Shown: positions 2,903-16,202 of the stretch, piece after piece | Position numbering within the stretch: position 1 is the stretch's first letter | Layout of the letters: each line of letters starts with the position of its first letter | Assembly: GCA_964654365.1 (NCBI GenBank) | Contig: CAZZIT010000147.1 | Location: forward strand, 1 to 26,916 | DNA: 26,916 nt | Direction: 5' to 3' | Origin: an uncultured archaeon | GTDB lineage: Archaea; Halobacteriota; Archaeoglobi; Archaeoglobales; Archaeoglobaceae | Made by a program: the position numbers and the translations under genes | Notes under the pieces: model-generated | The model's database searches: none | What the model was told of the DNA's origin: nothing | The model's input: only the letters and a program-made list of their open reading frames with translations

Positions 2903-4192
2903 ATGGAAAGACCGATACTTCAAGTAGCTTTAGACCTCGTTGAGCTCAAAAGAGCTCTCGAGATCGCTCAGGAGGCAATAGAGGGTGGTGCAGACTGGTT
3001 GGAAGCTGGCACGCCACTGATCAAGAGCGAGGGAATGAATGCGGTTAGAGAGCTGAAGAGGGCATTCCGGGACCACAAGATAGTTGCAGACATGAAAACG
3101 ATCGACACTGGAGCGGTTGAAGTGGAAATGGCCGCGAAGAGCGGGGCAGACGTCGTGATAATTCTTGCTCTATCAAACGATGCCACCATTGCGGAAGCGA
3201 TTCGCGCTGGAAGAAAATATGGTTGCGCGATCATGGCTGACCTGATAAACCATCCAGATCCCGTGAAAAGAGCAAAAGAGCTTGAAGAAATGGGTGTCGA
3301 CTATTTAAACGTTCATGTAGGTATAGACCAGCAGATGCTCGGGATTGATCCAATGGAGGTCCTTAAAAATGTTGTCGGAAGTGTGAACATCCCGATTGCA
3401 ACAGCTGGAGGACTTGACGCTGAGAGAGCTTCTTTTTGCGTCTCTCTCGGGGCAAAGATCGTGATAGTCGGCAGTAACATTGTGAAGTCCAGAAACGTCG
3501 TAGAGTCGGCAAAAAAAGTTAGAGAAGCCATTGATCGTAAATCGGGAGTATACGTTAAGAAGAGTATGGAAGAGGAGACCCGGGAACTCCTCATGAGGGT
3601 TTCAACCCCCAACGTGAGCGATGCCATGCACCGCGCTAAGGCCATGAGGGGGATCTACCCTCTGGTGAGGGGCAAGAAGGTCGTTGGAAAGGCTGTTACT
3701 GTTAGCACGATGGATGGGGACTGGGCCAAGCCTGTCGAGGCGATTAATGTGGCTGCAGAAGGAGACGTTATCGTTATAAAGTGCTCCGGCGACACAGCTG
3801 CAGTCTGGGGAGAGCTCGCTACGAGGAGCTGTCTGAACAGAAAGATCGCTGGAGTTATAATCGACGGGGCTGTGAGAGATGTGGACGACATAAGAGCGCT
3901 CGGATTCCCCCTGTTTGCGAGAAGAGAAGTCCCCAACGCCGGAGAGCCAAAAGGATTCGGGGAGATAAACGTAAGAATTATCTGCGGAGGCATTGAGGTA
4001 AATCCAGGAGACTGGATCGTTGCAGACGACAATGGTGTTATGGTGATCCCGAAGCAAAGGGCCTATGAGATAGCGAGGAGAGCTCTTGAAGTGAAAAAGG
4101 CTGAGGACAGGATAAGGGCTGAGATAGAGGAGAAGGGGAGAACACTCGCGGATGTCATCGAGCTATACAAGTGGGAGAAAGTTAGACAATAG
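2903..4192 (+). CDS. Bifunctional 3-hexulose-6-phosphate synthase / RraA-like (HMG aldolase family) fusion
   Basis: HPS motifs LQVALD, EAGTPLIK, DMKTIDTG, AGGL in the N-half; RraA-like C-half with TPNVSDAM, AVWG, IIDGAVRD, GDWIVADDNGV. Confidence 0.9.
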   Translation: MERPILQVALDLVELKRALEIAQEAIEGGADWLEAGTPLIKSEGMNAVRELKRAFRDHKIVADMKTIDTGAVEVEMAAKSGADVVIILALSNDATIAEAIRAGRKYGCAIMADLINHPDPVKRAKELEEMGVDYLNVHVGIDQQMLGIDPMEVLKNVVGSVNIPIATAGGLDAERASFCVSLGAKIVIVGSNIVKSRNVVESAKKVREAIDRKSGVYVKKSMEEETRELLMRVSTPNVSDAMHRAKAMRGIYPLVRGKKVVGKAVTVSTMDGDWAKPVEAINVAAEGDVIVIKCSGDTAAVWGELATRSCLNRKIAGVIIDGAVRDVDDIRALGFPLFARREVPNAGEPKGFGEINVRIICGGIEVNPGDWIVADDNGVMVIPKQRAYEIARRALEVKKAEDRIRAEIEEKGRTLADVIELYKWEKVRQ

Positions 4193-4248: not shown

Positions 4249-4929
4249 GTGGAACATAAAAGGTTTGCGGAGCGAGTTTGTGGCGAGATAGCGCTTGCAG
4301 AGCATCATGGAGAAGCAATGAAAAAATGGAGGCAGATATTCTCAATTTCGCAGAGCGAAATCGCCAGGAAGCTTGGCATCTCTCCCTCGGTAATCAGCGA
4401 CTATGAAGCTGGACGCAGAAGTCCCGGAGTCGCATTCATAAAAAAGTTTGTTCTCGCACTCATAGAAATTGACTCTCAGAGGCCGAATCCCGTGATTTCA
4501 AAGTATTTGGACCTTCCAGAGTTATCTTCCGCAATCATAGACCTCGCAGAGTATTCCCGGGGGGTTAAAATCGATGATTTCTGCTCGAAGATCGATGGAG
4601 AGAGACTCAACAACTTTGAAAGACTCATAAACGGACACACGGTTATAGACAGCATCAATGCCATTTTAACGCTGAGCGCTTACGACTTCTACAGACTCTT
4701 CGGTTTTACGAGCGAGAGGGCGCTTGTCTTCACGAAAGTCACGAGCGGAAGGTCGCCGCTGGTTGCTGTCAGGGTTTCGAGCTTGAAGCCCTCTGCTGTT
4801 GTTCTTCACGGCGTCTCAAAGGTTGACGAAATGGCGATAAAAATTGCAGAAGCTGAAAAGCTTCCGCTGATTAGGACCGAGCTGGAGATTGGCGAAATGA
4901 TAGATAGGCTGAGGAGGGATTTTGTGTGA
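4249..4929 (+). CDS. XRE-type HTH transcriptional regulator with C-terminal DRTGG-like domain (COG1709-like)
   Basis: [31 protein letters not shown]; C-terminal [13 protein letters not shown]...AVVLHG...KLPLI; GTGA overlap with HMGCS. Confidence 0.8.
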
Positions 4930-5954
4930 TCGGGATCGTTTCATACGGAACCTACATTCCGAAGTTCAGGATCAGAGTTGAGGAGATAGCAAGGATATGG
5001 GGTGAAGACCCCGAGGCCATCAAAAACAGCTTAGGAGTTGCGGAGAAGTCCGTTCCTGATTTGGATGAGGACACGGCGACAATGGCTGTGGAAGCTGGAA
5101 GAGAAGCTTTGCAGAGGGCAGGAATTCCACCAGAGAAAATAGGGGCTATATTCGTCGGCTCGGAAAGCCATCCCTACGCTGTTAAGCCGACCGCAACGAT
5201 CGTGGGCGAGGCTCTCGGAATCGGGAATTACTACTACTGCGCCGATCTCGAGTTTGCCTGCAAGGCCGCGACAGCAGGAATGCAGCTCTGCTACGCAATG
5301 GTCAAGGCGGGGATGATCGAATACGGAATGTCCATAGGCTCTGACACGGCCCAGTCAAGGCCCGGGGATGCGCTCGAATACACAGCCGCTGCAGGAGCTT
5401 CTGCGATATTAATCGGAAGGGATCCGATTGCAGAAATCGAGGCAACGGTTTCCTACACAAGCGACACACCTGACTTCTGGAGACGCGATCTTCAGCCCTA
5501 CCCGAGCCACGGAGGAAGATTCACTGGAGCTCCCGCCTATTTCAGGCACGTTACCTCTGCAGCTAAGAAACTGATGGAGACGTGCGGATACAGCGAGAAG
5601 GACTTCGACTACGCTGTATTCCACCAGCCGAACGCGAAGTTTCCTCAGAGAGTTGCCAGAATGCTCGGGTTCGATGAGAAGAAAATAGCTGATGGGATGC
5701 TTGTCAAGGCGATCGGGAACACCTATTCTGCGGCATCTCTGCTGGGCCTGTGCGGGATTTTAGATGTGGCAAAGCCTGACCAGAGGATTCTGCTCGTTTC
5801 TTTCGGCTCAGGAGCTGGAAGCGACGCCTTTGCGATCAGGGTTACGGAGAAGATCCTCAGCTACCCCCGGAGTCTAAGGATCTGGGACAAGGTGAAGAAC
5901 TGCGTTTACCTCGACTACGCGCTTTATCTGAAGCATAGGAGGATGATAAAATGA
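4926..5954 (+). CDS. Archaeal hydroxymethylglutaryl-CoA synthase
   Basis: [12 protein letters not shown] (E80), [10 protein letters not shown] (C112), FHQPN (H233) and GNTYS motifs all intact. Confidence 0.92.
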
Positions 5955-7102
5955 GGGTTGCGATCATTGGAGTCGGCTGCACGGAATTCGGTGAGCTCTG
6001 GGAAAAGAGCTTCAGGAGCATATTCCTTGAAGCCGGGATTGAGGCGCTAAGGGACTGCGGAATTGAGGGAAAGGAGATAGGGGCGATATATGTTGGTAAC
6101 ATGAGCGGAGGAAAGTTCATAGACCAGGAGCACATTGCTGCCTTGATTGCGGACCATGCTGGCCTCGCTGAGTTCGGAATTCCTGCCGTTAGAGTCGAAA
6201 ATGCAGATGCAAGCGGCGGATCTGCGTTTCGACAGGCTTTTATGGCCGTAGCTTCTGGAATGCACGATATAGTCATTGCAGCGGGAGTTGAGAAGGTTAC
6301 AGATTCCGTCGACCCGATGGGAGTTCTTTCAACCTCCGTCGATCAGGAGTGGGAGAGGTTCGTGGGAGCGAATCTTCCGGCGCTCTACGCAATAATGGCA
6401 AGGCTTCACATGCACGAATTCGGCACGACCGAAGAGGATCTCGCAAAAATAGCCGTTAAAAACCACAAAAATGCCGTTCACAATCCAAAAGCTCAGTTCA
6501 GAAAGGAAATAAGTGTCGAGGATGTTCTCTCCTCAGAAGTCATAGCTGATCCGCTTAAAGTGCTCGACTGCGCCCCCTTAAGCGACGGCGCTGCTGCGTT
6601 GATCCTCGCAAAAGAAGAGATTGCAAGAAAACTCTGCGATACACCCATCTTCGTCGAGGCCTGCACCCAGGCGAGCGATTACTTGGCCTTGCAGTGCAGA
6701 AAGGATCTGGTGACAATGGGATCAGTTCTCAAAGCCTCGAAAGAGGCTTACAGAATTGCGAGGACTGAGCCAAGAGAGATAGACGTTGCTGAGGTGCATG
6801 ACTCCTTCACAATTGCAGAGATCATGGCCTACGAAGACCTCGGATTTGCGAAAAAGGGAGAGGGAGCGAAACTGATAAGGGAGGGAGAGACAGAAATAGG
6901 TGGTAGGATCCCGGTGAACCCATCTGGAGGTTTGAAAGCCTGTGGGCACGCGGTTGGAGCTACAGGGATAAGGCAGATCGTTGAACTCGTTCTTCAGCTC
7001 CGCGGAGAGGCTGGAAAAAGGCAGGTTGATGCTGAAAAGGCTCTGGCCCTCAACGTTGGTGGAACCGGTGCGACTGCTGTGGTTACGATTTTGTCGAGGT
7101 GA
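5951..7102 (+). CDS. Archaeal acetoacetyl-CoA thiolase orthologue lacking both catalytic cysteines
   Basis: Colinear with methanogen mevalonate thiolases (KFGELWE-like start, GQEH-like [33 protein letters not shown]), but ENADASGG (D86) and VHDSF (S285); ATGA overlap with HMGCS. Confidence 0.88.
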
Positions 7103-7106
7103 TTTT

Positions 7107-7460
7107 ATGGTTCCGAGATTCTGGAGAAAGATAAGATACAGATATGACGTCATTGGCAGCTACTGCGAGAACTGCGGAAGCCACTACTATCCAAAAAGAG
7201 AACTCTGCCCAAAGTGTAGAAGGAAAGGAAAGCTTAGAGACGAGAATTTCCCCGATGAAGGAAAGGTCATAAGCTATACAATCGTAAACGGAAGGATCAT
7301 TGCGATGATCGAGCTGAAAAACGGTGCAAGGACCCTCGCAGAGGTGTGCGCCGACAGGATCGAGATCGGGATGAGGGTAAAGAAGGCCTTCAGAAGGTAT
7401 GGAGAGGACGGAGAAACGGGAATAATCTACTACGGAACCAAATTCGTCCCGATATGCTAA
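7107..7460 (+). CDS. DUF35 family Zn-ribbon/OB-fold protein (thiolase-HMGCS scaffold subunit)
   Basis: Real start is probably ATG 7107 (MVPRFWRKIRYRY), not 6981; CENC...CPKC ribbon, FRR..EDG..G.I.YG.KF.P C-terminus. Confidence 0.88.
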   Translation: MVPRFWRKIRYRYDVIGSYCENCGSHYYPKRELCPKCRRKGKLRDENFPDEGKVISYTIVNGRIIAMIELKNGARTLAEVCADRIEIGMRVKKAFRRYGEDGETGIIYYGTKFVPIC

Positions 7461-7504: not shown

Positions 7505-7762
7505 TTATTCCTGGTTCTGGTAGGCCTTCAGAACCGCGTCAACTATTTTATCTCTTGCCTCCTTGCTCATTGGATGGAAGACATCCTGATAGCTCCCATC
7601 CTTCCCCTTCTTGCTCGGCATACTCACCCAGAGCCCCTTTTCGCCCTCGATAACCTTCAGACCCTTAACGACGAATTCGTTGTCGAGGCTTACGGAGGCG
7701 TATGCCTTAACGTTTCCTTCTCCCTTCGATTTGTATATTCTAACTTCCGTAATTTCCGCCAA
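7505..7762 (-). CDS. spoVG: SpoVG family nucleic-acid-binding protein
   Basis: ITEVRIY...KAYASVSLDNEFVVKGLKVIEGEKGLWVSMPS...YQDVFHPM...R..I..AVL.AY, typical of SpoVG; AAAGGAGG RBS before TTG. Confidence 0.92.
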   Translation of the reverse strand: MAEITEVRIYKSKGEGNVKAYASVSLDNEFVVKGLKVIEGEKGLWVSMPSKKGKDGSYQDVFHPMSKEARDKIVDAVLKAYQNQE

Positions 7763-12371: not shown

Positions 12372-12974
12372 ATGAAACTTTTGGCAATAAATGGGAGTCC
12401 GAATAAGAGAAACACCTACGCCATACTGGAAGCTATCGCAGACGAAGTGAAAAAGCTTGGTGCAGAAGCGGAGATTTTGAACCTCGCAGATTATAACATA
12501 AACCCCTGCAAGGGTTGCGATAAGTGCCTCAAGGGAGAATGCATCCAGAAGGATGATATCGAAAAGGTGCTCGAAGCGATGAGAGCTGCTGACGCAATAG
12601 TTATCGGTGCCCCTACGTATTTCGGAAACGTTCCTGGAATCGTTAAGAATTTGATAGACAGGAGCAGAATGGACAGGATGGGTGGATTCAGACTCAAAAA
12701 CAAAGTTTTTGCCCCCGTAATTACTTCCGGGCTAAGACATGGCGGTGCAGAGTTCGTGGCGATGAGTCTGATCGTTTACGCCCTCGGGCAGGCTATGATA
12801 GTTGTATCGAATGCGGAGAATCCGATAACAACAGGAAGCTTCCCCGTGGGAGTCATTCAGGGAGATAACGGCTGGAGGGGAGTTAAGAAGGACGAGATAG
12901 CACTCAGCACCGCAAGAGCCCTTGCGAGAAGAATCGTAGAGGTTGCCAACGCTACGAAGAGTCTTAGAAGTTGA
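12372..12974 (+). CDS. Iron-sulfur flavoprotein (Isf) / flavodoxin family protein
   Basis: INGSPN, compact CKGCDKCLKGEC Cys motif, GAPTYFGNVPG..KNLIDR, HGGAE; candidate TATA AATATTAAT at 12343-12351. Confidence 0.88.
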   Translation: MKLLAINGSPNKRNTYAILEAIADEVKKLGAEAEILNLADYNINPCKGCDKCLKGECIQKDDIEKVLEAMRAADAIVIGAPTYFGNVPGIVKNLIDRSRMDRMGGFRLKNKVFAPVITSGLRHGGAEFVAMSLIVYALGQAMIVVSNAENPITTGSFPVGVIQGDNGWRGVKKDEIALSTARALARRIVEVANATKSLRS

Positions 12975-14170
12975 TGAATCTGAAATTCAGGATAAAGAGC
13001 ACAGAAGGTGCTGCAAGAACCGGAGTTGCCGAAGTTAGGGGGAAGAAATTCAAAACTCCAGCATTTTTGCCAGTAGCAACGCTTGCAAGTGTGAGAGCTC
13101 TGGATTTCAGAGATCTCAGGGAGATCGGCGTCGAAGTGGTGATGGCAAACACGTTTCACCTGCACCTGAAGCCTGGAGATGAGCTCATAAGGGAGCTGGG
13201 CGGACTTCACGAGTTCATGAAATTCGATGGTGTTATAGCAACCGATTCTGGCGGCTTTCAGGTTTTCTCTCTGGGCTTTGGAATGGAACACGGAATAGGA
13301 AAGATTGCGGACAACATATTTCTCGAAAGGCTGAGAAACGTCAGCAAAAAGGGAGAGAAATGGGTTGAGATCGACGAGGACGGGATCAGCTTCAGGAATC
13401 CTATAAACGGGAGCTTCATGCGCCTAACTCCAGAGAAATCGATGAAGATCCAGTCGAATCTTGGTTCCGATATTGTCTTCGTTTTCGACGAGTGCACTTC
13501 TCCGCTTTCAGACAAAGAATACACAGCAAAAGCTCTTGAGAGGACAAACAGGTGGATTCTTAGATGCTTAGAATGTTACGACAGAAATCAGGCAATATTC
13601 GGGATCGTGCAGGGAGGAGAGTACAGGGATCTTCGCATGAAATCCGTGGAGTTCATACTTAAGCACGATTTCGACGGTTATGGCATTGGCGGTTCCTTGG
13701 GGAAAAGCAAGGCAGACATGCTGAACATTCTGGAATGGGTAGTTCCCCTGCTTCCCGAAGAGAAGCCAAGGCATCTCCTCGGCATCGGGGCTGTGGAAGA
13801 CATATTCAGATCTGTAGAGAGGGGAATTGACATGTTCGACTGCGTCTCTCCGACGAGATGGGCCAGAAGGGGCGTTCTTTACATTTCTCCCGAAGGTGGT
13901 GGAAGCGCTGAAAACAAGTTCAGGGTTCACATAAAGAATGCAGATTTCAAAAAAGACAGGAAACCGCTGGATCCTGCCTGCGACTGCTTTGTTTGCCAGA
14001 ATTACTCGAGAGCATATCTGCACCACCTATTCGTATCGAACGAGCTAACTTATTTCCGTTTGGCATCCTATCACAACGTCCGCTTCTTTATAAGGCTAAT
14101 GGATGAAATTCGTGAGGCGATCGATGGGGGCTACTTTTCAGAACTCAAGAAAGAGTGGTTGCGGGAATAG
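12974..14170 (+). CDS. tgt: Bacterial-type (queuine/preQ1) tRNA-guanine transglycosylase
   Basis: TPAFLPVAT, ANTFHL, TDSGGFQVFSL, FRNPING, FDECT, VQGG, RHLLGIG, DMFDCVSPTR, Zn site CDCFVC...YHN; no PUA domain. ATG 12974 overlaps the Isf stop (TGATG). Confidence 0.93.
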   Translation: MNLKFRIKSTEGAARTGVAEVRGKKFKTPAFLPVATLASVRALDFRDLREIGVEVVMANTFHLHLKPGDELIRELGGLHEFMKFDGVIATDSGGFQVFSLGFGMEHGIGKIADNIFLERLRNVSKKGEKWVEIDEDGISFRNPINGSFMRLTPEKSMKIQSNLGSDIVFVFDECTSPLSDKEYTAKALERTNRWILRCLECYDRNQAIFGIVQGGEYRDLRMKSVEFILKHDFDGYGIGGSLGKSKADMLNILEWVVPLLPEEKPRHLLGIGAVEDIFRSVERGIDMFDCVSPTRWARRGVLYISPEGGGSAENKFRVHIKNADFKKDRKPLDPACDCFVCQNYSRAYLHHLFVSNELTYFRLASYHNVRFFIRLMDEIREAIDGGYFSELKKEWLRE

Positions 14171-14215
14171 AAAAAATTATATTGCATGTCTGCGAATTCT
14201 TGCTTAGAGTCGAGC

Positions 14216-14368
14216 ATGAAGCATGCGAAAAAGTTTAAGGAATACTTCGAGGACATAAGACCAGTAACGGACGAGGAGCTTGAAGAGCTCCTGAATGACT
14301 CCCCCGGTAGGAGCGAAAGAAACAAAAAGATTAAGAAAGCGAAGAAGGAGCTATACAGAGAGCATTAG
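14216..14368 (+). CDS. Small Lys/Glu-rich hypothetical protein (50 aa)
   Basis: MKHAKKFKEYFEDIRPVTDEELEELLNDSPGRSERNKKIKKAKKELYREH fills the gap between tgt and tpiA; purine-rich codons; AAAAAATTATATTG at 14171-14184 upstream. Confidence 0.55.
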   Translation: MKHAKKFKEYFEDIRPVTDEELEELLNDSPGRSERNKKIKKAKKELYREH

Positions 14369-15023: not shown

Positions 15024-16202
15024 TCAGAAGTCCGTCATGATCCTGAACTGATCCGTATCGGGCTTTAGATGTGCCATGAACCTTCTCACCGCTCCTTCCA
15101 CATCCCTAGCCTTTGTGATCGCTCTACCAACGACTACGATGTCAGCACCGGCTGCGATAACTTCGGATACGTTCTCGGGCTTTATACCTCCCGCAACAGC
15201 CACAAGAACCCGATACTTCCTGATCTCCTTTGCAAGGGACCATGGTGGAACGCTCTGCTCGCTGTCTATGGCTCTGTGCAGCTCTACAACGTCGGGCTGT
15301 GCTTCTTTAACTATCTGATCCATTCTTTTCACCGGATCCTCCACGTTCAGCATATCAACGACCGCAAGCATTCCCGTCTTCTTCGCTTCGCTTACGCCCT
15401 TAGCGATCGTGCTGATCGGTGCCAGACCCGAGATCACGACAGCATTTGCCGTAGCGTCCGCGGCCATTCTTGCTTCAAGATTTCCGACATCGAGGGTTTT
15501 CAGATCGAGAATGAAGAAGGCATCTGGCTTCACATCTCTGAGCTTCAGAATAACCTCGCAACCGTATTTCTTAACTAAGGGCGTTCCCACTTCGAATATT
15601 ATGTGATCACTTTCTGGAATCTGCGAAAGCACGGAAATTACCTCCTCAAGGTCGGGAATGTCAAGGGCTATCTGCAGGTATGGCGGATCCCAGAGCTTCG
15701 TGAGCTTTCTTCCAACAAACGGATGGTGGCTGCGATCTTTCTCATATAGCATCGTACCCACGTCGGGGAAGTTCTGCATGGCTCTTTTGATCGCGAGCTT
15801 AGTCGCTCCGTAGTTGTAGTAGTAGATCTTGTGCTTGTTTTTTGCCATTGGATGTATGAAGACGCTAACGACTATCAGGTAGTCTTCCGCCCTTTCCTTT
15901 GGAATGTATCCCTCTTCAACTGCATCGGCAACTGCCTTCGCAACTGCAGCCTGTGCGGGACCAAAGATCAGCTCAGCCTGCTCCATGTTCCTGACAGTCA
16001 CCTTCGGAACTATCACTGCGGGAGGTTTCGTGATCAGGTTCGGTCTCAAAACTGCGAGGAGCGGCGTATGACCTGCTGAAAGCGTTGCAAGGGCGTTAGC
16101 AAAAGCTGCTGCGACCGGACTGTCTTTTGTGCCGATTAAGAGATCAACGTGAGCAACTTCGTAGCCCTCGCCGATCAGAGCTTCGCCAACCCTGAACTCC
16201 AT
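15024..16202 (-). CDS. fae-hps: Bifunctional formaldehyde-activating enzyme / 3-hexulose-6-phosphate synthase
   Basis: Fae domain GEALIG...AHVDLLIG...GHTPLLAV.RPN...PKVT...GPAQAAVAKAV...VFIHP; HPS domain LQIALD, EVGTPL, DLKTLDVG, AGGI, VGRAIT. Confidence 0.95.
   Translation of the reverse strand: MEFRVGEALIGEGYEVAHVDLLIGTKDSPVAAAFANALATLSAGHTPLLAVLRPNLITKPPAVIVPKVTVRNMEQAELIFGPAQAAVAKAVADAVEEGYIPKERAEDYLIVVSVFIHPMAKNKHKIYYYNYGATKLAIKRAMQNFPDVGTMLYEKDRSHHPFVGRKLTKLWDPPYLQIALDIPDLEEVISVLSQIPESDHIIFEVGTPLVKKYGCEVILKLRDVKPDAFFILDLKTLDVGNLEARMAADATANAVVISGLAPISTIAKGVSEAKKTGMLAVVDMLNVEDPVKRMDQIVKEAQPDVVELHRAIDSEQSVPPWSLAKEIRKYRVLVAVAGGIKPENVSEVIAAGADIVVVGRAITKARDVEGAVRRFMAHLKPDTDQFRIMTDF

Follow-up and report, generated by a model that had tools for sequence, protein, structure and literature searches.

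A divergent subfamily of bacterial-type tRNA-guanine transglycosylase that in archaea appears linked to a queuosine precursor transporter

We identified a gene for a bacterial-type tRNA-guanine transglycosylase (Tgt) in a 26,916-nucleotide stretch of DNA (contig CAZZIT010000147.1; this whole stretch is referred to as the window) from an uncultured hot-spring archaeon of the Archaeoglobaceae. The surrounding genes, which encode a family-B DNA polymerase, topoisomerase VI subunit B, an archaeal TIM, Fae-Hps, a GPN-loop GTPase and a DUF22 protein, are archaeal genes of Archaeoglobi. The closest genomes are Archaeoglobi metagenome-assembled genomes (MAGs), such as WYZ-LMO2 (93% identity). A single long open reading frame occupies the tgt position (12971/12974..14170, forward strand), and the ATG at 12974 is the start chosen by gene callers on identical metagenome contigs. 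The gene itself is already known, having been annotated since the 1997 Archaeoglobus fulgidus genome. The A. fulgidus DSM 4304 homolog is AAB89762.1 (on AE000782.1), in agreement with a preliminary description of this DNA that had mentioned such an annotation, and a literature search for AF1485 found nothing relevant. The features of the locus are collected in Table 1.

Table 1. Genes, motifs and insertions at the tgt locus. Motif positions come from alignment to E. coli Tgt; coordinates were read off the DNA.
Feature	Coordinates	Strand	Basis or correspondence
Flavodoxin-like FMN reductase gene with C-x2-C-x2-C-x4-C motif, upstream of tgt	12372..12974	+	Pfam FMN_red, 125 bits
tgt, 398-residue bacterial-type tRNA-guanine transglycosylase, divergent GGSLG/PRHLLGIG subfamily	12974..14170	+	Profiles, AF2, Foldseek
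DSGG, D91-G94	13244..13255	+	D91 = E. coli D89 / Z. mobilis D102, general acid/base
Subfamily-specific insertion, residues 101-131, begins GFGMEHGIGKIADN	13274..13366	+	Not present in the Tgt of E. coli, T. maritima or Z. mobilis
DEC, D172-C174	13487..13495	+	D172 = Z. mobilis D156, base recognition; C174 = C158, retained
QGG	13610..13618	+	Q213 = Z. mobilis Q203; aligns with E. coli QG motif
Pocket loop GGSLGKSK, replaces canonical GGLAVGEPK	13688..13711	+	DNA read and alignment
PRHLLGIG, replaces PRYLMGVG	13766..13789	+	Z. mobilis Y258 to H, M260 to L
DMFD, D286-D289, then CVSPTRWARRG	13829..13840	+	D289 = E. coli D264 / Z. mobilis D280, catalytic nucleophile
Second subfamily insertion EGGGSAENK, 9 residues, ~residues 307-315	13892..13918	+	Alignment
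Zinc subdomain C336-x-C338-x-x-C341 ... H351 ... H367	13979..14074	+	CDCFVC 13979-13996; H367 14072-14074

The stop codon of the flavoprotein gene (TGA) shares one nucleotide with the tgt ATG (TTGATG), and the two genes are thus probably co-transcribed. This adjacency is kept in nine related Archaeoglobaceae MAG loci (L093-096, L099-101, L104 and L107) and is absent outside this one lineage among the loci compared. PDB and NCBIfam matches of the flavoprotein reveal generic WrbA/FMN-reductase similarity only. We considered the flavoprotein as a reductase partner of Tgt and rejected this candidate because of the lineage-confined adjacency and generic similarity. Within the window, we detected no queuosine (Q) or archaeosine gene besides tgt, no tRNA gene, no Rfam match such as a preQ1 riboswitch and, by tblastn, no queuosine precursor transporter (QPTR).

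The 398-residue protein contains a single Pfam TGT domain (residues 14-397, 427 bits), and Pfam assigns it no PUA or other second domain. Its NCBIfam TIGR00430 (tRNA guanosine(34) transglycosylase Tgt) score of 515.3 bits lies above the equivalog threshold (cut-off 306.75). Identity with arcTGT was rejected on the basis of the TIGR00432 score (123.5 bits, cut-off 350) and the single TGT domain, and identity with DpdA on the basis of the NF041059 score (22.5 bits, cut-off 200) and the absence of dpd-like neighbors from the window. PDB sequence matches likewise include bacterial TGT (bTGT) at E = 1e-99 and arcTGT at E = 1e-23. The archaeal Tgt shares with arcTGT/TgtA the catalytic TIM-barrel and zinc superfamily and an archaeal host needing preQ0 chemistry, but it has none of the C1/C2/PUA domains of that enzyme. 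An AF2 model (pLDDT 86.6, pTM 0.88) shows a (beta/alpha)8 barrel followed by a zinc subdomain at the C terminus, and Foldseek aligns it to Zymomonas mobilis TGT with TM-scores of 0.88/0.94 and an rmsd of 1.4 A. The TIGR00430 and TIGR00432 scores, the lone domain and the archaeal neighbors bear out the preliminary description of an intact bacterial-type Tgt in an archaeon that lacks a PUA domain.

Alignment also recovered all of the bacterial catalytic and zinc residues that had been reported from a reading of the sequence: DSGG, DEC, QGG, DMFD, and CxCxxC with its His. DSGG is invariant in alignments A1 and A2 and in every representative covering that region, and the zinc Cys and His residues are all invariant in alignment A2. 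D172 aligns with E. coli D143. H367 aligns with E. coli H333 and Z. mobilis H349, a position that we take to be a zinc ligand from the Tgt crystal structure. Both Arg of the PTRxxR motif, which presumably contact U35 in the Z. mobilis complex, are kept. Across 120 homologs, the protein is 61-99% conserved and all catalytic and zinc residues are invariant, which argues for purifying selection. The archaeal Tgt further shares with canonical bTGTs (E. coli, Z. mobilis and T. maritima) its fold, ~40-48% identity, the catalytic Asp pair, the zinc site, a single-domain architecture, the base contacts equivalent to D156/Q203/G230, Cys158, and dimer-interface aromatics that are conserved or conservatively replaced.

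Canonical bTGTs lack four features of the archaeal Tgt: a 27-residue insertion, a 9-residue insertion, the GGSLGK loop and PRHLLGIG. The first insertion occupies the region of residues 101-131, after DSGGFQVFSLG. Nearly all subfamily representatives carry 17-93 residues here with a G-x-G...G-K motif, and the close clade shows no variation at E105, H106, G109, K110 and A112. The AF2 model has a pLDDT below 50 in this insertion. GGSLG (G239-G243) was found at exactly the positions given in the preliminary description, 13688-13702, in place of GGLAVG/GGLSVG, and GGSLGK is near-universal in the 120 close homologs. The loop is one residue shorter than the canonical one and has no Glu at the position of Z. 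mobilis E235 (E219 in E. coli). Because of this shorter length and a lower local model confidence (pLDDT 78 for block 241-250), a one-to-one assignment to Z. mobilis L231-E235 is impossible. By alignment, the elements of preQ1 specificity (GGL[AS]VGE with its Glu switch, and Tyr258/Met260) are replaced in the archaeal Tgt. The two insertions, PRHLLGIG and the loss of the post-loop Glu had gone unmentioned in the preliminary description.

Three of these traits co-vary over 150 representatives: an insertion of mostly ~20-60 residues, the change from GGL[AS]VGE to GGS[LF]Gx, and that from PRYLMGVG to PRHLLGIG. In a neighbor-joining tree, a single split sets 48 of the 53 signature-bearing sequences apart, with no canonical sequence on their side. 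Judged by these sequences, the subfamily is separate from standard Tgt and near-monophyletic. Its members come from Archaeoglobi, Methanosarcinales, Thermoplasmatota, DPANN archaea and CPR bacteria, and in related CPR enzymes Glu or Asp replaces the Ser of the loop (GG[ED][FL]G). PDB sequence and fold searches matched no structure of a subfamily member, and literature searches found no assay of one. The subfamily, together with the transporter link described below, appears to be new.

The pocket had been likened to that of queuine-salvaging enzymes, a comparison that we consider overstated, as a loop that is one residue shorter and has lost its Glu resembles neither known type. Queuine-inserting TGTs carry the signature GG[LS][AS]G (PMC11570991), which GGSLG misses through Leu at the fourth position, with the qualification that loop lengths differ and positional equivalence is ambiguous. 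A second rule for queuine TGTs is the replacement of Cys158 by Val, as in eukaryotic TGT (PMC3660597, PMC5699537); here Cys is kept as C174 of DEC. On account of the missed signature and the retained Cys158, the pocket gives no positive identification of queuine. The archaeal Gly two residues after GG may match the pocket-enlarging Val233Gly of queuine-inserting TGTs, enzymes that are without the His/Leu change and the insertion. Human QTRT1, as we understand it, keeps the post-loop Glu (GGLSGGE) that is missing from the archaeal Tgt, and we know of no QTRT2-like partner for the archaeal subtype.

We identified the subtype Tgt within the 6-kb flanks of QPTR in 57 of 80 species genomes, a sample that was retrieved through QPTR itself and in which many loci come from MAGs with uncertain binning and taxon labels. 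The median gap between the two genes is 92 bp, and 45 pairs lie within 120 bp. The transporter gene scores 234 bits against TIGR00697 ('queuosine precursor transporter', cut-off 51). The pair takes three arrangements, which are convergent in Archaeoglobi and DPANN, divergent in Thermoplasmatota, and tandem in Methanotrichaceae. The genes are direct neighbors, separated by 8 bp, in cultured A. sulfaticallidus PM70-1, whose genome is complete. In the closest relatives of the window, a single MAG encodes both genes but on separate contigs (WYZ-LMO2, JZ-3_D_bin_138, DJKA128, DRTY-1_bins_47, SKYB47 and others), and no QPTR was found within 10 kb of tgt in A. fulgidus DSM 4304 or G. ahangari.

Canonical tgt is linked to queA, whereas subtype tgt is not and is instead linked to QPTR in relatives of the window gene. 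QueA lies within 10 kb of 21 of 28 canonical Tgt loci versus 1 of 47 loci of the GGSLG subtype, and was not found within 6-10 kb in ~90 archaeal loci of the subtype. We also clustered 176 neighboring ORFs from 29 loci and found no QueA/C/D/E/F/G/H among them. This search for a third conserved partner of the Tgt-QPTR pair yielded lineage-restricted neighbors only (AspRS, translin, Ham1, TiaS, a histidine kinase and unknowns), and the idea of such a partner was rejected. Some neighbors of subtype loci point to anticodon and tRNA biology. In four Archaeoglobaceae loci, the next gene downstream encodes TiaS, which acts on C34 of tRNA-Ile2. Seven DPANN-like loci have a bacterial-type AspRS next to the Tgt-QPTR pair, and locus L010 has HisRS at a distance of two genes. 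A class II aminoacyl-tRNA synthetase without a GAD domain lies beside QPTR in one Archaeoglobus MAG.

In Chlamydia and Bartonella, Tgt and QPTR without QueA constitute a queuine/preQ1 salvage configuration (PMC11570991), and the archaeal relatives share this pairing and the lack of a nearby QueA. We favor, with moderate confidence, a reading in which the archaeal Tgt and QPTR make up a salvage module of two genes, where Tgt is the enzyme and places an imported 7-deazaguanine, queuine or preQ1, into G34 of GUN tRNAs. QPTR would import a base released by neighboring bacteria. Tgt, probably a homodimer like bTGT, would then use Asp289 to attack C1' of G34 in tRNA-Asp/Asn/His/Tyr, release guanine and insert the imported base in one step, and neither QueA nor QueG/QueH maturation would follow. 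In the source organism, tgt would be co-transcribed with the flavoprotein gene and the transporter would be expected elsewhere in the genome. We consider queuine the most likely substrate, preQ1 the second and preQ0 the third. In DPANN, QPTR could serve arcTGT instead, since archaeosine synthesis in archaea also requires preQ0. In the literature that we searched, no archaeon is described as carrying Q, preQ1 or preQ0 at position 34. The salvage proposed in the preliminary description gains comparative support from the pairing of subtype Tgt with QPTR across archaeal phyla, almost never near QueA, with queuine the likeliest of the options named there, ahead of endogenous preQ0 and another RNA.

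Insertion of preQ0, either from the organism's own archaeosine pathway or imported through QPTR, into G34 of GUN tRNAs or another position would give a preQ0-type wobble base rather than queuosine, and we regard this as unlikely. The reading draws on the lost Glu, which normally lets Tgt flip the Leu231/Ala232 peptide and expose a carbonyl to preQ1. With the NH exposed, the pocket suits guanine (PMC3660597) and would presumably also suit a nitrile. Archaea make preQ0 (PMC5699537), the QPTR-family member YhhQ of E. coli imports it (PMC5372724), and the tgt of the window is unlinked to a transporter. However, tight pairing with an importer is hard to explain in Archaeoglobi, Methanosarcinales and Thermoplasmatota, which are expected to make their own preQ0. 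The GG[ED][FL]G loop of CPR relatives would better suit a cationic aminomethyl or amine group than a nitrile, and no amidotransferase or other follow-up enzyme recurs near subtype loci.

Ordinary de novo queuosine synthesis would instead have preQ1 supplied by QueF and finished by QueA and QueG/H, all encoded elsewhere in the genome, as in some DPANN and Methanosarcinales. Passages of Castelle et al. (2021) report co-localized QueA, QueH and Tgt in DPANN and Methanosarcinales, in 34 archaeal genomes (PMC8204110), so that the earlier premise that Q-pathway genes would be new to archaea is dated; these passages do not mention Archaeoglobi. The genes they describe share with ours a bacterial-type Tgt in archaea, presumably horizontally acquired, but form a de novo-type finishing pathway, whereas the subtype described here is partnered by QPTR and has no QueA in its neighborhoods. 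The TIGR00430 score above the equivalog cut-off and a QueA homolog 1.4 kb from the CPR subfamily locus L127 are also consistent with de novo synthesis. Nonetheless, the contrast in QueA proximity between subtype and canonical loci, the absence of QueA from the surveyed archaeal surroundings, and the replacement of both the GGL[AS]VGE loop and the Tyr/Met of PRYLMGVG make this reading improbable for the subfamily. A 2005 survey, by which time the A. fulgidus genome was available, likewise found QueA in bacteria only (PMC1282579).

Least probable of all is a different target (rRNA, another tRNA position, or DNA as for DpdA) or a horizontally acquired gene with no current role: the 27-residue insertion beside the active site could change binding, as could the divergent PTRWARRG segment, and the gene context of the window is uninformative, but the DpdA score and lack of dpd-like genes argue against DNA, the TiaS, AspRS, HisRS and QPTR neighbors and the two retained Arg of PTRxxR argue against another target, and the conservation across homologs, with invariant catalytic and zinc residues, argues against loss of function.

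Queuosine is classically a modification of Bacteria and Eukarya, and archaeosine one of Archaea. If the salvage reading is extended to the whole subfamily, a possibility that we raise tentatively, Archaeoglobi, Methanosarcinales, Thermoplasmatota and DPANN symbionts may bear queuosine or another salvaged 7-deazaguanine at the wobble position by means of this TGT subfamily and QPTR, a two-gene cassette passed between phyla. Bacteria and Eukarya would then not be the sole domains with queuosine, and high-temperature archaea, like eukaryotes, would rely on bacterial neighbors for a tRNA micronutrient. The Tgt-QPTR pair, conserved and selected in four or more archaeal groups, suggests that the queuosine/archaeosine division has exceptions and that a micronutrient dependency crosses domains, including in communities at ~77 C or hotter. 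Cultured strains with both genes exist, namely A. sulfaticallidus PM70-1, G. acetivorans and A. neptunius, which makes the question open to direct testing. The different substrate pocket, with no Glu switch, the His/Leu change and the insertion, is relevant to TGT enzymology and to tRNA engineering with artificial bases, and the plain name 'Tgt' given to such proteins in databases probably over-transfers preQ1 function.

The window tgt (Table) begins at an ATG that shares one base with the TGA of the upstream gene (TTGATG). Gene callers choose the same ATG in four identical metagenome contigs sampled at Great Boiling Spring; the '77' in the record names of the samples we take to mean about 77 °C. 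Pfam assigns the 398-residue product a single TGT domain (residues 14-397) and no PUA domain. The protein passes the TIGR00430 model for tRNA guanosine(34) transglycosylase Tgt (515 bits against a cut-off of 306.75). It falls below the cut-offs of the arcTGT (123.5 against 350 bits) and DpdA (22.5 against 200 bits) models. Its best solved relatives are the E. coli, T. maritima and Z. mobilis Tgts (E about 1e-99 to 1e-91), and P. horikoshii arcTGT matches at only 1e-23. The preliminary description of a bacterial-type Tgt without PUA is thus borne out. Alignment and reading of the DNA recovered every Tgt motif it named, with GGSLG exactly where it had been placed. The protein has a bTGT fold with nucleophile Asp289, acid/base Asp91, base-binding Asp172 and Gln213, and a zinc site, all strongly conserved.

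Several features set the window Tgt apart from E. coli Tgt. It has a 27-residue insertion right after DSGGFQVFSLG (residues 101-131) and a second insertion of nine residues (EGGGSAENK). The loop GGSLGKSK replaces GGLAVGEPK and is one residue shorter, with no counterpart of Z. mobilis Glu235. PRHLLGIG replaces PRYLMGVG (Tyr258 to His, Met260 to Leu), PTRWARRG replaces PTRNARNG, and Cys158 (DEC) is kept. When 1.84 billion cluster representatives were searched and the relevant columns extracted, the loop, insertion and PRHLLGIG/PRYLMGVG states proved to covary. PRHLLGIG sequences have a 17-93-residue insertion, starting with a G-x-G...G-K motif conserved subfamily-wide, and a GGS[LF]Gx or related loop with no conserved Glu, whereas PRYLMGVG sequences have GGL[AS]VGE and no insertion. 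A simple, unrooted neighbour-joining tree built from 150 representatives has a single split that places 48 of the 53 His/Leu sequences, and no Tyr/Met sequence, on the same side.

An AlphaFold model of the window Tgt (pLDDT 86.6, pTM 0.88; insertion pLDDT below 50) superposes on Z. mobilis TGT with TM 0.88/0.94 and an rmsd of 1.4 Å. Its top fold matches are all Z. mobilis TGT (about 40% identity), and the insertion is absent from the PDB matches inspected by residue (E. coli, T. maritima); we therefore found no solved structure of the subfamily.

Two other signatures occur in these data. A third class, unlike both canonical (standard preQ1-type) Tgt and the window subfamily, combines GGE[ST][IV]G[YF] with PRY[TS]MGVG (representatives P0126, P0146, P0147, P0168, P0173, P0201, P0217 and P0240). 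Hybrids with a canonical-like GGVSVGE loop, PRHLLGVG and an insertion (locus L134, Patescibacteria UBA10108; P0132, P0222 and P0259) possibly represent transitional forms linking the two types of pocket, and might serve to work out which change matters.

Nearly all of the 120 closest homologues (61-99% identity) have GGSLGK; where a source is named, it is Archaeoglobus, Geoglobus, Aenigmatarchaeota or Nanoarchaeia. The cultured carriers are A. fulgidus DSM 4304 (AAB89762.1 on AE000782.1, beside an archaeal PEP carboxylase gene), which bears out the earlier mention of an annotated bacterial-type tgt in A. fulgidus, A. fulgidus DSM 8774, A. neptunius, A. sulfaticallidus PM70-1, G. ahangari and G. 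acetivorans. Distant members (44-50% identity, loops GG[SED][LF]G) occur in CPR bacteria (Saccharibacteria, Paceibacterota, Parcubacteria). Two Archaeoglobaceae MAGs, ZMQL_201709_bins_20 (L123) and DRTY-6_201912_bins_46 (L164), each carry a further, partial match to Tgt on a different contig (64% over residues 45-398 and 90% over residues 69-389, respectively); paralogy, pseudogenes or binning artefacts may account for them.

In two DPANN-like contigs, the subfamily tgt adjoins a Vut_1 protein that scores 234 bits (cut-off 51) against TIGR00697, the queuosine precursor transporter (QPTR). This transporter served as the query for a scan of GTDB at one genome per species, which gave 80 loci. Locus counts are not an unbiased census, because loci were retrieved by peptide patterns. 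Of the 80, 57 encode a subtype Tgt within 6-kb flanks. These Tgts have GGSLG[KR] and are 50-70% identical to the window protein; the gap to QPTR has a median of 92 bp and lies within 120 bp in 45 pairs. The pair is convergent in Archaeoglobi, Woesearchaeota, Nanoarchaeota and MAGs labelled Methanosarcinales, divergent in Thermoplasmatota and tandem in Methanotrichaceae. Most of these loci are MAGs, and some taxon labels look doubtful (for example, some 'Methanosarcinales' MAGs have DPANN-like synteny). That the pair has stayed together through such rearrangements in different phyla is difficult to account for unless the two genes are functionally coupled. Cultured A. sulfaticallidus, whose genome is complete, also has them adjacent, convergent and 8 bp apart.

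No QPTR was found in the 26.9-kb window, nor within 10 kb of tgt in A. fulgidus DSM 4304 or G. ahangari; G. acetivorans has both genes, unlinked. When genomes were scanned again, now with a QPTR profile from Archaeoglobi, the transporter turned up on other contigs of the MAGs with the closest Tgts (WYZ-LMO2, JZ-3_D_bin_138, DJKA128, DRTY-1_bins_47, S1_Bin_MAXBIN_075, 21I_069.bin.26, SJ3.Bin61 and SKYB47). Judging from these relatives, the window organism very probably has QPTR elsewhere in its genome.

Among loci retrieved with the window Tgt, QueA lies within 10 kb in 21 of 28 canonical loci, usually directly upstream, and in 1 of 47 subtype loci, a CPR bacterium. Clustering of 176 neighbouring ORFs from 29 loci revealed no QueA, C, D, E, F, G or H and no further conserved partner of Tgt-QPTR; the absence of QueA, QueF, QueG and QueH refers to tgt neighbourhoods.

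The lineage-specific neighbours are informative all the same, and it is the gene neighbourhoods that hold the functional signal. In four Archaeoglobaceae loci (L032, L035, L036, L038), tgt is directly followed on the same strand by TiaS, the tRNA-Ile2 agmatidine synthetase that modifies C34 of tRNA-Ile2. This would be an apparent operon of two enzymes modifying the wobble position (34). Seven DPANN-like loci have a bacterial-type, GAD-domain AspRS next to the Tgt-QPTR pair, and HisRS lies two genes away in another locus; queuosine substrates in bacteria include tRNA-Asp and tRNA-His. A wider DPANN-like block around the pair (L007, L011, L012, L013, L015, L021, L023, L031) holds this AspRS, a translin-family protein and a Ham1-like NTP pyrophosphatase. 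Several of its genes appear to be of bacterial origin and could have been transferred as a group.

From sequence and gene context, we lean towards the window Tgt working like a salvage TGT. It would catalyse the ping-pong exchange usual for Tgt at G34 of GUN tRNAs, with a replacement base delivered by QPTR and no QueA or QueG/H step after insertion. We rank queuine first as this base, preQ1 second and imported preQ0 third. The window Tgt has the defining pocket features of neither preQ1-type nor queuine-type TGTs. In canonical Tgt, Glu235 permits a Leu231/Ala232 peptide flip between NH-out (guanine) and C=O-out (preQ1) states (PMC3660597). With this Glu lost and the loop one residue shorter, Ser241/Leu242/Gly243 cannot be mapped onto Leu231/Ala232/Val233. 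If Gly243 does replace Val233, the pocket would be enlarged as in eukaryotic TGT. The 'queuine-salvage-like GGSLG pocket' proposed earlier stands as to the motif, but evidence counts against a simple queuine-type label: GGSLG departs from the published queuine signature GG[LS][AS]G (PMC11570991) at the fourth position, and residue 158 is Cys rather than Val.

The separate alternative that Tgt inserts preQ0, including endogenous preQ0, appears unlikely. The importer is kept beside Tgt even in lineages that presumably make their own preQ0, which argues that it brings in a compound beyond their own synthesis. The Ser hydroxyl at the first loop position would favour an amine-bearing C7 group, as in preQ1 or queuine, over a nitrile, and so would the Glu/Asp carboxylate of CPR relatives. 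This fit also counts against a simple queuine-type label for the salvage enzyme we favour.

Bacterial-type tgt in archaea is not new; the A. fulgidus gene, AF1485, goes back to the genome of 1997. Castelle et al. 2021 (PMC8204110) described 34 genomes of archaea, from DPANN and Methanosarcinales, in which QueA, QueH and Tgt are co-localised. In the searchable literature we found neither a description of the Archaeoglobi-type Tgt as a separate subfamily with a different pocket, nor of its pairing, in different archaeal phyla, with QPTR and not QueA, nor an assay of a subfamily Tgt, nor experimental support for a 7-deazaguanine at position 34 in archaea. Public annotation gives these proteins the plain name 'Tgt' by transfer.

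Gene content marks the window as archaeal, with genes for family-B DNA polymerase, topoisomerase VI B, archaeal TIM, Fae-Hps, a GPN-loop GTPase, DUF22 and SpoVG, and the nearest genomes are Archaeoglobi MAGs (e.g. WYZ-LMO2, 93% protein identity). The compact cysteine motif of the upstream FMN reductase resembles that of archaeal iron-sulfur flavoproteins. Among loci retrieved with the window Tgt, the FMN reductase-tgt order is shared by nine related Archaeoglobaceae MAG loci and is absent elsewhere; that the flavoprotein acts with Tgt, perhaps as a reductase, is purely speculative. The window holds two hexulose-phosphate-synthase-family (OMPdecase/HUMPS) fusion proteins: a fusion with an RraA-like domain, and Fae-Hps, which adjoins TIM. 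The DUF35 protein is ChsH2-like, with a zinc ribbon and an OB-fold.

Table. Window tgt and other features of the window.
Feature	Position	Strand	Remarks
tgt	12971/12974-14170	+	sole long ORF at the site (ORF scan); ATG at 12974
GGSLG loop motif	13688-13702		
Flavodoxin-like FMN reductase	12372-12974	+	C-x2-C-x2-C-x4-C motif; stop overlaps tgt start
Small ORF just 3' of tgt	14186-14368	+	60 aa (ORF scan) or 50 aa (gene callers); no family match; called in 4/4 identical metagenome contigs
HUMPS-family fusion	2903-4192	+	
HUMPS-family fusion	15024-16202	-	
HTH_3 regulator, then archaeal HMG-CoA synthase/thiolase/DUF35 trio	4249-7460	+	overlapping genes
SpoVG homologue	7505-7762	-
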